32,000 nt of DNA from Nostoc punctiforme PCC 73102 (GTDB taxonomy: Bacteria; Cyanobacteriota; Cyanobacteriia; Cyanobacteriales; Nostocaceae). The notes under the pieces were generated by a model that was not told where the DNA came from, made no database searches, and saw nothing but the letters and a program-made list of their open reading frames with translations. The stretch covers positions 1,680,001-1,712,000 of the forward strand of contig NC_010628.1 of assembly GCF_000020025.1 (NCBI RefSeq), read 5' to 3'. Of the stretch, positions 23,377-32,000 are shown one piece after another (within the stretch, counting starts at the first letter, position 1; the number at the start of each line of letters is the position of its first letter). Both the position numbers and the translations under genes were made by a program.

Positions 23377-25605
23377 TCAACGCAAATCTACATATTGACC
23401 TAAATCTTTATCCCTGAGAACTTGTCCCATTTTCTGATACTCCCGACGTAGCGCTCGAATTAAATGTACCATCTCAATTACTCCCCCATCATCTGCCGCT
23501 AAAAAAGCTGCTGTTAGCGCAATATAGCGAATATTAGCCCCTGTAATCTCAAAATTTTGTGCCAATAATTCTAAATCAAGATTGGGACTACAGGGGGCAT
23601 TTTTGGGAAAAATTCTTTGCCAAATTGAATGACGATTCTTTGTATCTGGTAAGGTAAATTCGATAATAAATCGGAGTCGCCGCTCAAAAGCTTCGTCTAT
23701 ATTGTTACGGAGATTTGTAGTTAAAATTGCAATACCTTCATACTCTTCCATTTTTTGCAACAGATAACCTACTTCGATATTGGCGTAGCGATCGCGGGCA
23801 TCTTGCACTTCAGAACGTTTACCAAATAAGGCATCGGCTTCATCGAAAAAAAGGATGGCATTAGAATTGGTTGCAGCAGTAAAAATGCGATTGAGATTTT
23901 TCTCTGTCTCGCCGATGTATTTACTAACTATTTGAGATAAATCAATTTTGTAAAGGTCTAATTGCAGTTGATGGGCAATCACCTCTGCTGCCATAGTTTT
24001 ACCTGTACCGGAAGAACCAGAAAACAGAACATTTAAACCTTTACCTAAAGATAATTTATCTGCAAAACCCCATTTTTGATGTACTAAATTTCGGTATTCT
24101 GCTTCTTTGCAAATATCTTTTAGTTGTGTTATTTGGTTGGGGTGCAATACAATATCATCCCAAGTATATTTCGGTTCTATTTTACGGGCGAGGGTAGCTA
24201 AATCGTGACCTGATTGAGCGCGAGCAGCACTACATAAGTTTAAAAATGACGGTAGTGGTTTTTCTTGAGTTGAGTCAATTTGTTGCCAACGGGCAGTATT
24301 ATAGGCAGTAGCGACAGCATCCGCAATCTGGTCTGGAGTGAGAAGAAAGCGATCGCACAACACATCTAACTCTCTATCTTCAAGAGTTATATGGGCTGCT
24401 TTGAGGTGAGTTTGCCAACATTCTCGGCGTTGACTAGACTCAGGAACTGTAAAGGGAACTGTAATTAACCCGGTTGCACCCGTCGCTGTGGGTATCCAAT
24501 TTTTCACTCCTGAGAGAATAGTAATACCTATATTTTTCTCTAATTCTCTGAGAAAGGATTGATAAAGAATTTGATGCTCTTGAAGGTAGAGAATATCGAA
24601 GTTATCGAGATACAGCAAACGATTAAAAAACCAGGCTTCTCGCCATAAAAGTTGCAGTTTTTCCTCAAAGTTGGCTTTATCCTCTACCAACTTTGCTAAA
24701 TCGACAACTAATAAGGGAACTTCCAAAGTTTTAGCAAGAATTTGGGCAGTGCGGCGTTTACCAGTGCGTAGGCGCAGCCCGCCGCAGGCATCAGTCCCTT
24801 GAAAATATAGCAGTAATGGTTGTTGTTTTTGCCAGTCTTCTATCAGCAATGCTTCTAGTGCTGTCTGTACATCTGCCTTGAGATATAAAGTATCGAAATA
24901 TATAGTTGGTTCTAATAGTTGACAACAAGAAGTGAGGCGGGAATCTAACCCCGGTTGATGCAATAGCAACCTTACCACTTGGGAGTCGAGTATTAGATGA
25001 TGAGAAAGAAGTGTAGATTGCTGCTGATGAGATTCTGGACAGAGATGGAGAAGACGGTGGTAAATTAGGGGTGAGTTAGTAGTAAAATGCTTACGTCGTG
25101 ATAGCTTTTCTGGAACGCTAGAACAGAGCAAGTTTAAGACCATATCTACTGTGGGTTTTTTGTTACTCATATCATCTTGGAGATAAGCATAAACCCGTTC
25201 ATAGTGACGATCTAATTCTGGTGCAAGAGCGATCGCTAATATATCTAAGTCAAAGCTAGATAAACTAAAAGTATTTTGCAACCATGCTAAGAGCGAATCT
25301 GACCGAATTGTAATTGATGTTGGCTCTGATGATATTTCGGTCTTTTGCAACCATGATACTCCGATTTCTCCCTCTGCTTTTTCCTGGGTTTGCAGAGTGA
25401 AAATCGCTTGTTTAATTAGCCAATCTAATCGTTGCAACATAGATTGCAACCCATTTAAATCAGGACTAATTTCTACGGCTTGGGAGATAGGTTTGGTAAA
25501 TATCTGCGCTTCTGCTGCTGTTGAATACACTGGATATTCCTTGAGTGAGCAGTATATGGAAATGGAGCAGAGATTGTGGACGTTAGCAACGCCTACTGTA
25601 GGCAT
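23377..25605 (-). CDS. CIS-associated AAA+ ATPase (Afp15/Cis15-like; degenerate N-terminal ATPase-like domain plus canonical C-terminal AAA domain)
   Basis: 742 aa. The C-terminal domain has Walker A GSSGTGKT (nt 23998-24021), Walker B ILFFDEADALF and a sensor region ILTTNL...FERRL. The N-terminal domain has a P-loop remnant (TGKRRTAQIL) and LLYLDNFD. It is adjacent to DUF4157 and divergent from the sheath/tube genes. The start codon is not certain. Confidence 0.85.
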   Translation of the reverse strand: MPTVGVANVHNLCSISIYCSLKEYPVYSTAAEAQIFTKPISQAVEISPDLNGLQSMLQRLDWLIKQAIFTLQTQEKAEGEIGVSWLQKTEISSEPTSITIRSDSLLAWLQNTFSLSSFDLDILAIALAPELDRHYERVYAYLQDDMSNKKPTVDMVLNLLCSSVPEKLSRRKHFTTNSPLIYHRLLHLCPESHQQQSTLLSHHLILDSQVVRLLLHQPGLDSRLTSCCQLLEPTIYFDTLYLKADVQTALEALLIEDWQKQQPLLLYFQGTDACGGLRLRTGKRRTAQILAKTLEVPLLVVDLAKLVEDKANFEEKLQLLWREAWFFNRLLYLDNFDILYLQEHQILYQSFLRELEKNIGITILSGVKNWIPTATGATGLITVPFTVPESSQRRECWQTHLKAAHITLEDRELDVLCDRFLLTPDQIADAVATAYNTARWQQIDSTQEKPLPSFLNLCSAARAQSGHDLATLARKIEPKYTWDDIVLHPNQITQLKDICKEAEYRNLVHQKWGFADKLSLGKGLNVLFSGSSGTGKTMAAEVIAHQLQLDLYKIDLSQIVSKYIGETEKNLNRIFTAATNSNAILFFDEADALFGKRSEVQDARDRYANIEVGYLLQKMEEYEGIAILTTNLRNNIDEAFERRLRFIIEFTLPDTKNRHSIWQRIFPKNAPCSPNLDLELLAQNFEITGANIRYIALTAAFLAADDGGVIEMVHLIRALRREYQKMGQVLRDKDLGQYVDLR
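24764..24792 (-). repeat. GC-rich mini-repeat, copy inside the CIS AAA+ ATPase CDS (translated DACGGLRLRT)
   Basis: The reverse complement reads GATGCCTGCGGCGGGCTGCGCCTACGCAC. It is translated in the same element frame as the Nif3 copy. Confidence 0.8.
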
Positions 25606-25682
25606 CGCACTATCCTAAATATTTTTTTCAATCTCCTTTATTACTTTCGCTAAAATGGCGATCGCACTACAATAACTTTCTT

Positions 25683-31764: not shown

Positions 31765-31791
31765 TTCAAATTTATTACAGGAGGTTCTTTT

Positions 31792-32000
31792 ATGCCTACG
31801 ATTTCTAACCCCCATGACCCATACAGTGGTTATAATTTCTGGGTGGAATGGGATGGTATTGTTCATGCTGGGTTTCGTGAATGTAGTGGTTTGACAGCGA
31901 CTCGCAAAGCAGGAACTTATCGAGAAGGAACAGATAAAGCATTAAGCCAACGTCAAATTCCCGGTCTTAATACTTATGGTAACATTACCCTAAAACGAGG
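31792..32000 (+). CDS. Tail tube protein (Phage_T4_gp19-like; Afp1/Cis1-like), 5' part only; continues beyond the window
   Basis: This ORF is not in the ORF track because it is open-ended. My translation is MPTISNPHDPYSGYNFWVEWDGIVHAGFRECSGLTATRKAGTYREGTDKALSQRQIPGLNTYGNITLKRG. The F.VE.DGI..AGF.E.SGL...YREG....PG...YGNITLKRG pattern is typical of gp19-type tube proteins. An AGGAGG RBS lies at 31779-31784. Confidence 0.85.
   Translation, partial: MPTISNPHDPYSGYNFWVEWDGIVHAGFRECSGLTATRKAGTYREGTDKALSQRQIPGLNTYGNITLKR

Follow-up and report, generated by a model that had tools for sequence, protein, structure and literature searches.

Three ways of working have been described among the characterised relatives of the contractile injection system (CIS) considered here: the system of Streptomyces coelicolor (CIS-Sc) is cytoplasmic, that of Halogeometricum borinquense is membrane-bound, and that of the cyanobacterium Anabaena sp. 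PCC 7120 is thylakoid-anchored (tCIS). Clusters encoding CISs are found in about 40% of sequenced cyanobacterial genomes (Weiss et al. 2022), and the lineage-I tCIS of Anabaena is the only cyanobacterial system that we found studied in the literature examined. The tCIS is defined by a Cis19 crown, an extension of Cis12 and a transmembrane helix in Cis13, and Nostoc punctiforme is missing from the table of strains with these features (Weiss et al. 2022). Here we describe a CIS cluster of N. punctiforme PCC 73102, a strain in wide use as a laboratory organism and model, that begins in a window of 32,000 nucleotides, the window being the whole stretch of DNA analysed (NC_010628.1, positions 1,680,001 to 1,712,000, so that an NC_010628 coordinate equals the window coordinate plus 1,680,000). 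Judged by its genes, window 23377-32000 is the left end, and the first third, of a complete CIS cluster. Its points of interest are a cyanobacteria-only protein encoded next to the cap gene, a hypervariable fibre, a rare cargo domain and the mode of action, which would put gene content to the test as a predictor of how such systems work.

The proteins encoded in window 23377-32000, all seven of them, are exact matches to ACC80104-ACC80110 of N. punctiforme PCC 73102. An initial annotation, made from the letters of the window, had read these genes as a hallmark CIS set cut by the window end. Both statements hold, as all seven genes are present with Pfam matches far above the curated cut-offs, and the cluster continues downstream both on identical contigs and in a published gene table. 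The features are as follows (window coordinates, strand, description).

23377-25605, minus strand: Npun_R1398, 742 aa, cis15/afp15-type AAA+ ATPase (Pfam AAA, E 3.9e-30; winged-helix, E 1.2e-32)
25683-27335, minus strand: Npun_R1399, 550 aa, DUF4157/eCIS_core protein (Pfam eCIS_core, E 2.2e-33)
25686-26459, minus strand: C-terminal domain of Npun_R1399, residues 293-550, a rare module
27336-27746, no strand: divergent intergenic region, 411 bp, AT-rich, read from the sequence
27747-28331, plus strand: Npun_F1400, 194 aa, cis16/afp16 cap or tail terminator (Pfam Pvc16_N/DUF4255, E 6.1e-35)
28346-28984, plus strand: Npun_F1401, 212 aa, CarboxypepD_reg-like protein (Pfam CarboxypepD_reg, E 2.2e-15)
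29118-30563, plus strand: Npun_F1402, 481 aa, sheath paralog A (Pfam Phage_sheath_1 and Phage_sheath_1C)
30664-31764, plus strand: Npun_F1403, 366 aa, sheath paralog B (Pfam Phage_sheath_1 and Phage_sheath_1C)
31792-32000, plus strand: Npun_F1404, tube gene A, first 69 codons (146 aa in full on contig L001; Phage_T4_gp19, E 1.1e-43)

The remainder of the cluster can be followed on other contigs. Contig L001 is 100% identical to window 20664-32000 (11,337 bases) and extends 9.8 kb beyond it, and a second N. punctiforme contig, L047, supplies a further downstream part. On L001 tube A (146 aa) is followed by a 120-aa protein (p120), tube B (160 aa; Phage_T4_gp19, E 2e-38), a 514-aa protein (p514) and an initiator with CIS_tube and LysM domains. 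Next come a 356-aa Phage_GPD-like hub protein (E 1.7e-6, just under the Pfam cut-off) and a 235-aa Phage_base_V spike protein, which together form a split afp8, then gp25, a 1181-aa Baseplate_J protein and a 315-aa J-like protein (TIGR02243, E 1e-40; weak Pfam Baseplate_J). L047 adds the gene for a 531-aa Tail_P2_I protein and, behind it, the start of a fibre-like gene (234 codons). In Nostoc sp. LEGE 12450 (L005), a 94%-identical relative, the fibre-like gene is followed by a CIS_spike_tip gene (E 4e-54), past which lie unrelated genes, the first of them encoding a STAND-type NTPase. The whole cluster comprises about 22.8 kb and 19 core genes, from Npun_R1398 to Npun_F1416 (window-equivalent 23377 to about 46188, counting on as though the window continued). 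By family assignment it encodes every structural module of a phage-tail-like particle, namely cap, sheaths, tubes, initiator, spike and tip, baseplate and fibre-like protein, and the predicted structural roles, which follow from family membership, are well established. Past position 32000 the initial annotation had expected baseplate, spike, tape-measure and further tube genes; all were found, a LysM initiator and gp25 among the others, except the tape measure, for which p514 is a candidate only.

The locus is already known. It is catalogued gene by gene in the Supplementary Data of Geller et al. 2021 (Nat Commun; PMC8213781), in the eCIStem set of extracellular CISs (eCISs), as eCIS operon 66540 (NC_010628 1,697,384-1,735,488). 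There Npun_R1398 is labelled afp15, Npun_R1399 DUF4157, Npun_F1400 afp16, Npun_F1401 CarboxypepD_reg, Npun_F1402 and F1403 afp2_3_4, F1404 afp1_5, F1405 (p120) is unnamed, F1406 afp1_5, F1409 and F1410 afp8, F1411 afp9, F1412 and F1413 afp11, F1414 Tail_P2_I, F1415 (623 aa) is unnamed and F1416 afp10, after which come AAA_16, WD40 and carbonic anhydrase genes (Geller et al. 2021). Because this gene table shows it, the N. punctiforme cluster itself is complete, and because Npun_R1398-F1416 are listed as operon 66540 the finding is not new. The coordinates and gene calls of entry 66540 agree with ours and the sequence shows no differences; the entry comes without subtype discussion, structure, fibre analysis, cargo analysis or experiment. 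The supplement text of a 2024 paper on an eCIS toxin classifier does not mention the locus. Screens for eCISs (Chen et al. 2019; Geller et al. 2021) look for an Afp11 homolog and gp19-like Afp1/5 homologs in one locus, and here both occur together (Baseplate_J, E 1.4e-17; tubes, E 1e-43 and 2e-38), within an eCIS gene set that includes afp15, afp16, two copies each of afp2_3_4, afp1_5, afp8 and afp11, as well as afp9, afp10 and a CIS_tube/LysM gene.

Sheath A scores highest in the Protein Data Bank (PDB) against Streptomyces CIS-Sc (360 and 349 bits), then against the haloarchaeal CIS (314 bits), the tCIS protein All3325 (158 bits), Pvc2 (154 bits), AlgoCIS (148 bits) and Afp3 (141 bits). The baseplate-J protein reaches 223 bits against Cis11 of CIS-Sc, 31 against Afp11 and 25 against All3317 of the tCIS, and the Tail_P2_I protein finds Cis12 of CIS-Sc as its only PDB match. 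According to Chen et al. 2019, two afp11 copies occur in subtypes IIa and IIc, a split afp8 in IIa, IIb and IIc, and divergent afp12 and afp13 are kept in IIa and IIb, only IIb being without afp10. The N. punctiforme cluster has two afp11 copies (the 1181-aa Baseplate_J and 315-aa J-like proteins), an afp8 split into gp27-like and gp5-like open reading frames (ORFs), afp12- and afp13-like genes and an afp10, which is the label of Npun_F1416; no Afp6 or Afp14 family match was obtained among the cluster proteins searched, in keeping with the lack of both in subtype IIa. By gene content the cluster fits eCIS lineage II, subtype IIa; sheath A is slightly closer to the IId member (360 bits) than to the IIa member (314 bits). 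Clusters of the lineage-II type were found in Nostoc, Calothrix, Fischerella, Richelia, Okeania, Moorena, Xenococcus, Spirulina, Dolichospermum and others, and the N. punctiforme cluster is typical of this widespread cyanobacterial group.

Three differences from the Afp/PVC archetype had been pointed out in the initial annotation: a cap gene placed first, an ATPase and a DUF4157 gene on a divergent arm, and an extra beta-sandwich protein between cap and sheath genes. In the Afp cluster the cap and ATPase genes come last. All three differences are present in N. punctiforme, but none is specific to this locus. When 41 related loci, fetched with the baseplate protein, were compared by tblastn, 19 of the 20 loci with a visible cap, among them loci of Blastocatellia, Actinomycetota and Anaerolineae, had the cap gene immediately before the sheath genes; cap-first is therefore normal for the lineage. 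Of 17 cyanobacterial loci, 15 have the beta-sandwich gene behind the cap gene; none of the three non-cyanobacterial ones does. Two sheath paralogs are likewise kept across the related loci, Blastocatellia and Actinomycetota included. The position of the ATPase arm varies. The ATPase gene, often with the DUF4157 gene, moves in place and strand among loci L012, L022, L014, L015, L018-L020, L025 and L038, lying downstream of the spike tip or upstream of the cap, or missing from the flank that can be seen. Nostoc sp. FACHB-110 (L012) and a Nostocaceae metagenome-assembled genome (L022) have the DUF4157 gene and then the ATPase gene after the spike tip, without a change of strand. Several other loci also have the ATPase downstream, an Actinomycetota locus has it upstream on the same strand, and in a distant cyanobacterial locus the 5.4 kb preceding the cap contain no DUF4157/ATPase arm. 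In all three readable loci (N. punctiforme, L012 and L022) transcription runs from the DUF4157 gene to the ATPase gene, and this shared order argues for a joint function.

The divergent arm of N. punctiforme fits a loader and cargo module. In AlgoCIS, the cargos consist of a disordered N-terminal loading sequence, a DUF4157 domain and a variable C-terminal effector domain, and their loading into the lumen of the tube requires the AAA+ protein Alg15. The DUF4157 domain belongs to the eCIS core and is tied to toxins, and in the haloarchaeal CIS DUF4157 proteins are toxins that are secreted. Npun_R1399 has the same three-part layout as the AlgoCIS cargos Cgo1 and Cgo2, with a region rich in Q, S and E (residues 1-190), a DUF4157 domain (193-269) containing an intact HExxH motif (HELTH at 258) and a C-terminal domain (293-550), and we infer that it is a cargo or effector. 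It has no match in PHROGs or NCBIfam. Because Alg15 loads AlgoCIS cargo, Npun_R1398 is read as the putative cargo loader. The ATPase is Cdc48/FtsH-like, not ClpV, with a winged-helix domain towards the N-terminus (Pfam, residues 106-225) and an AAA domain towards the C-terminus (residues 526-651) that carries canonical Walker A (GSSGTGKT at 530) and Walker B (ILFFDE at 584) motifs. It had been described as a double AAA+ protein. One canonical AAA+ domain is borne out by Pfam; the second is left at plausible, since the AAA-like middle region (residues ~260-460) has degenerate motifs and was visible by eye alone. The intergenic region between the arms presumably holds the promoters of both, but a consensus promoter and terminator scan of 27336-27746 performed no better than on shuffled sequence, and therefore we assign no promoter and claim no operon boundaries.

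The C-terminal domain of Npun_R1399 is rare, with 18 representatives among 1.84 billion proteins in an exhaustive HMMER search, and six of the ten relatives tested carry an N-terminal eCIS_core domain. Its AlphaFold2 model (predicted local distance difference test score, pLDDT, 86.8) has a beta-sheet core followed by helices. The best 50 Foldseek matches in the PDB are all GNAT acetyltransferases, albeit weak ones (E 4e-3 to 0.1, about 80 columns), and the family has a conserved GGxG-like loop preceding a helix, in which the Npun_R1399 copy has leucine at the second glycine. We regard a GNAT-like effector as a tentative lead, with rather less than an even chance of proving right.

The cap protein Npun_F1400 has the CIS-Sc cap (9gts, E 5e-14), Afp16 and Pvc16 as its best solved relatives. 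Only 14 nt past the end of its gene begins that of Npun_F1401, whose AlphaFold2 model (pLDDT 91.6) consists of two transthyretin/prealbumin-like beta-sandwiches with a helix inserted at residues 38-54. Between them, Foldseek with this model and the family profile searched against the PDB returned generic domains only (pilin, carboxypeptidase D and NOMO-type), with no CIS part among the best 50 Foldseek matches and no CIS chain matched by the profile; PHROGs and NCBIfam gave no match. The family comprises about 104 sequence clusters, and every one with a named organism is cyanobacterial. Two distant members, one 45% identical and the other a short single-domain protein, are both encoded between cap and sheath genes. 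The Npun_F1401 family was thus encountered in cyanobacteria only, and each of its genes with a visible context lay in a CIS locus, between cap and sheath. Perhaps Npun_F1401 is an accessory part that decorates the cap or distal sheath, which is a guess from gene position. We also considered whether it might be a second cap like Cis16B of the tCIS; this is unsupported, as neither sequence, profile nor Foldseek gave a CIS chain.

The fibre-like gene, Npun_F1415 (L047:11611-12312; L005:16110-17927; window-equivalent 43841-45712), encodes a protein with a CIS13_fam N-terminus (E 6e-8, under the curated cut-off). The first 180 aa are conserved among strains (67-97% identity), the remainder shows 1-20% identity, and the length varies from 440 to 905 aa. 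This divergence occurs even though the remaining CIS proteins of the same strains mostly share 85-100% identity. By its sequence, the fibre-like protein shows the classic pattern of a receptor-binding fibre, with middle and C-terminal parts that appear to be swapped among strains. The N. punctiforme short-read contigs that extend into this gene, six in number (L047-L049 and those behind L001, L002 and L004), all stop at one point, 702 nt into it, inside an ITSGxLNVxRIPNLS repeat. A crude Kyte-Doolittle test (19-residue window, mean of at least 1.6) revealed no anchor-like hydrophobic stretch in any of the cluster proteins. In the fibre-like protein of the 94%-identical relative, to which the N-terminal 234 aa of the N. 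punctiforme fibre are 96% identical, no window passed this value. This contrasts with the anchoring proteins of other systems, namely Cis13 of the tCIS, CisA of Streptomyces and Hbor_38620 of haloarchaea.

Two proteins encoded near the tube genes deserve mention. The p120 protein (Npun_F1405, 120 aa; L001:11590-11952, window-equivalent 32253-32615), encoded between both tube genes, has no Pfam, NCBIfam, PHROG or PDB match, yet is among the best conserved cluster proteins across phyla (62-77% identity in loci of Blastocatellia and Actinomycetota). Its C-terminus is formed by a CPHCDGEFE motif, and the data of Geller et al. 2021 (PMC8213781) group it with proteins of Geobacter, Methanosarcina and many cyanobacteria. 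As it has no homolog among solved CIS chains, a role as an assembly factor outside the particle would fit. The p514 protein (514 aa; L001:12702-14246, window-equivalent 33365-34909) is rich in S, P and Q and has internal repeats of about 45 aa. Its gene follows the tube genes and overlaps that of the LysM initiator by 10 nt, and its length ranges from 514 to 580 aa in closely related Nostoc strains. In phage P2 the tape measure lies at the equivalent position. A possible role for p514 could be that of a length ruler in a lineage said to lack Afp14, although its composition looks disordered, not helical. It has no PHROGs or NCBIfam match, and no recognisable tape-measure gene was found in the cluster.

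As to the mode of action, an extracellular one is slightly favoured, because of the CIS13-family N-terminus, the hypervariable fibre and the lack of an anchor-type hydrophobic segment. The DUF4157 protein, unfolded by the ATPase Npun_R1398, would be fed into the tube lumen by way of its disordered N-terminus, the rare and possibly GNAT-like C-terminal domain of Npun_R1399 being the effector. The particles would assemble in the cytoplasm and then be released, attach to a target by means of fibres with C-terminal parts exchanged from strain to strain, and then contract to inject the cargo. The transthyretin-like protein encoded beside the cap gene would be an accessory part limited to cyanobacteria, perhaps located on the cap or distal sheath. 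As N. punctiforme lives in symbiosis with plants, possible targets would be grazers, competitors or host cells. Several points weigh against this picture. The closest characterised relatives are not extracellular, CIS-Sc being cytoplasmic and the haloarchaeal IIa system membrane-bound and like a type VI secretion system (T6SS); no lysis or release genes are visible in the cluster; and our literature search found no experimental study of the Npun_R1398-Npun_F1416 locus. The GNAT-like call depends on weak Foldseek E-values, the domain of Npun_R1399 carries leucine for the second glycine of the GGxG loop, the role of the transthyretin-like protein is a guess resting on gene position, and the hydropathy window is a crude test for an anchor, which could be encoded elsewhere in the genome.

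One alternative is an intracellular CIS that, like CIS-Sc, triggers regulated death of the producer cell under stress, firing within the filament and releasing its DUF4157 effector into the cytoplasm or envelope of that same cell. CIS-Sc supplies the best solved matches for the sheath (360 bits), cap and baseplate-J protein (223 bits), its host is multicellular and differentiating as is N. punctiforme, and the other cyanobacterial CIS that has been studied is tied to cell lysis and ghost cells. However, CIS-Sc is fibre-less and depends on CisA, whereas the N. punctiforme cluster has a hypervariable fibre-like gene and lacks a CisA-like membrane protein, and two afp11 copies with a split afp8 do not suit subtype IId; on balance we consider this explanation unlikely. 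Equally unlikely in our estimate is a contact-dependent system anchored in a membrane, either the cytoplasmic membrane, as in the haloarchaeal IIa 'T6SS', or the thylakoids, as in the tCIS. The gene content is that of subtype IIa, whose sole characterised members are membrane-bound, the host is a filamentous cyanobacterium with thylakoids, and the Tail_P2_I protein (531 aa, compared with 190 aa for Cis12 of CIS-Sc) has an unexplained C-terminal extension. Against this, the tCIS-defining features were not detected in the cluster proteins searched and N. punctiforme is absent from the strain table, similarity to tCIS chains is low or nil, the crude hydropathy test gave no transmembrane segment in the fibre or any other cluster protein, and a six-helix anchor like Hbor_38620 was not seen close to the cluster. 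It is highly improbable that the locus is the tail module of a defective prophage or an R-type tailocin, which would kill by depolarising membranes and deliver no cargo, for although NCBI annotates 'phage tail' proteins and the sheath, tube and baseplate families are common to myophage tails, there are no capsid, portal, terminase, integrase, lysis or tRNA genes in the window or downstream, the hallmarks by which surveys separate eCISs from pyocins and prophages are present (DUF4255 cap, afp15-type ATPase and DUF4157), and the same gene order recurs across many cyanobacterial orders and other phyla.

Returning to the extracellular mode, it is conceivable, if doubtful, that the cyanobacterial lineage-II clusters in general encode true extracellular particles, with a structural part of their own found only in cyanobacteria and retargeting by fibre swapping, and that in N. 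punctiforme they deliver a GNAT-like acetyltransferase. If so, these would be the first lineage-II systems shown to act extracellularly.

The surroundings of the cluster agree with a CIS-class machine as proposed in the initial annotation, which had named downstream capsid or terminase genes, TssA-M components or a missing baseplate as signs to the contrary; none of these signs was seen. The first 23 kb of the window hold ordinary chromosomal genes (polysaccharide synthesis, a metallo-beta-lactamase/RMMBL protein resembling RNase J, P450 and Rieske proteins), and no capsid, portal, terminase, integrase or T6SS families were found in their ORFs of at least 100 aa, nor in 10 kb downstream. Head and integrase genes are absent from the cluster through to Npun_F1420, the sheaths are of the Phage_sheath_1 type, no Tss family (TssB/TssC, TssJLM) or ClpV was found in the scanned ORFs, and the window contains no tRNA gene and no Rfam element. 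A different locus, the dark-induced 'putative prophage' Npun_F1091-F1118 (NC_010628 1,303,703-1,340,837), was described in a 2025 mBio paper with sheath, tail-fibre and GpW genes. Identity with the locus in the window was ruled out, because the coordinates lie about 0.4 Mb apart and the quantitative PCR primers for Npun_F1091-F1118 have no match within the window. This makes it a further phage-tail-like locus, one that the searchable table text of Geller et al. 2021 does not count among the eCISs.

Among the neighbouring genes, a 587-aa protein (21575-23338, plus strand) has a Rieske [2Fe-2S] domain in its first 110 residues only, the remaining 470 aa having no Pfam match. Only 38 nt separate the end of its gene from the stop of the ATPase gene, which runs towards it; the protein is conserved in many Nostoc strains, and no link to CISs was seen. 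Window 1-8638 carries a surface-polysaccharide set (a glycosyltransferase fragment, a methyltransferase, a DegT-type aminotransferase, a Bac_transf sugar transferase and a protein resembling GNVR/AAA_31 chain-length regulators), followed by NIF3 and UPF0047 genes, and the GC content falls to 0.33 at 2001-4000. ORFs without a Pfam match are found at 7047-7796 (plus strand, 249 aa), 14872-15660 (minus strand, 262 aa) and 20796-21176 (plus strand, 126 aa; Npun_F1396). Directly past the CIS cluster, Npun_F1418-F1419 (window-equivalent 46622-53615) encode a STAND-type AAA_16 NTPase, 98% conserved beside the cluster in three related Nostoc loci, and a 1833-aa WD40 protein.

In comparison with the known systems, the lineage-I Afp, PVC and AlgoCIS share with the N. 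punctiforme cluster the tube, sheath, LysM initiator, spike, gp25, baseplate-J, cap and AAA+ ATPase. They have a single afp8, a recognisable tape measure (Afp14) and a plug (Afp6), and their sheath similarity is much lower (141-154 bits). Among the Afp genes the highest numbers belong to the cap (Afp16) and the ATPase (Afp15), and the gene order differs from that of N. punctiforme. The tCIS of Anabaena sp. PCC 7120 (PDB 7B5H, 7B5I), which had been brought up as a related system, is indeed a relative, but a distant one and not the closest, with a sheath score of 158 bits against 360 for CIS-Sc, 25 bits for the baseplate protein, and no match for the cap, Cis12 or fibre. Both clusters are cyanobacterial with adjoining DUF4157 putative effectors, and each has an extra protein associated with the cap region, Cis16B in the tCIS and, putatively, the transthyretin-like protein here. 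A Cis15 ATPase is missing from the tCIS, and its sheath is encoded by one gene. The Cis19 and Cis12 chains of 7B5H were not matched by the part of the cluster searched against the PDB, a transmembrane helix of the Cis13 type was not seen in the fibre-like protein of the 94%-identical relative by the crude hydropathy test, and the extra length of the Tail_P2_I protein relative to Cis12 of CIS-Sc is an uncharacterised C-terminal region of about 340 aa.

The haloarchaeal CIS of Halogeometricum borinquense (clade IIa; PDB 9EZM) has the second closest solved sheath (314 bits) and shares Cis8a/b, Cis11a, Cis12, Cis13, the ATPase and DUF4157-domain proteins with the N. punctiforme cluster. It is bound to the cytoplasmic membrane, is associated with the six-helix membrane protein Hbor_38620 and has an 8.7-kb spacer with toxin-immunity pairs; neither a comparable six-helix anchor nor such a spacer was seen at or near the N. 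punctiforme cluster. CIS-Sc of S. coelicolor (IId; PDB 8BKY, 8BL4, 9GTP, 9GTS) provides the closest solved sheath (E 2e-106), cap (E 5e-14) and baseplate-J protein (E 8e-65) and the Cis12 match, and in both systems no tape-measure gene is recognisable. It has one sheath gene, one afp11, a contiguous afp8 and no fibre, and depends on the membrane protein CisA, whereas N. punctiforme has two sheaths, two afp11 copies, a split afp8 and a fibre-like gene and has no CisA-like protein, nor any protein with a transmembrane segment downstream of the baseplate genes. From these sequence comparisons, the closest solved relatives of the N. punctiforme cluster are the Streptomyces and haloarchaeal CISs, rather than Afp/PVC or the tCIS of Anabaena.

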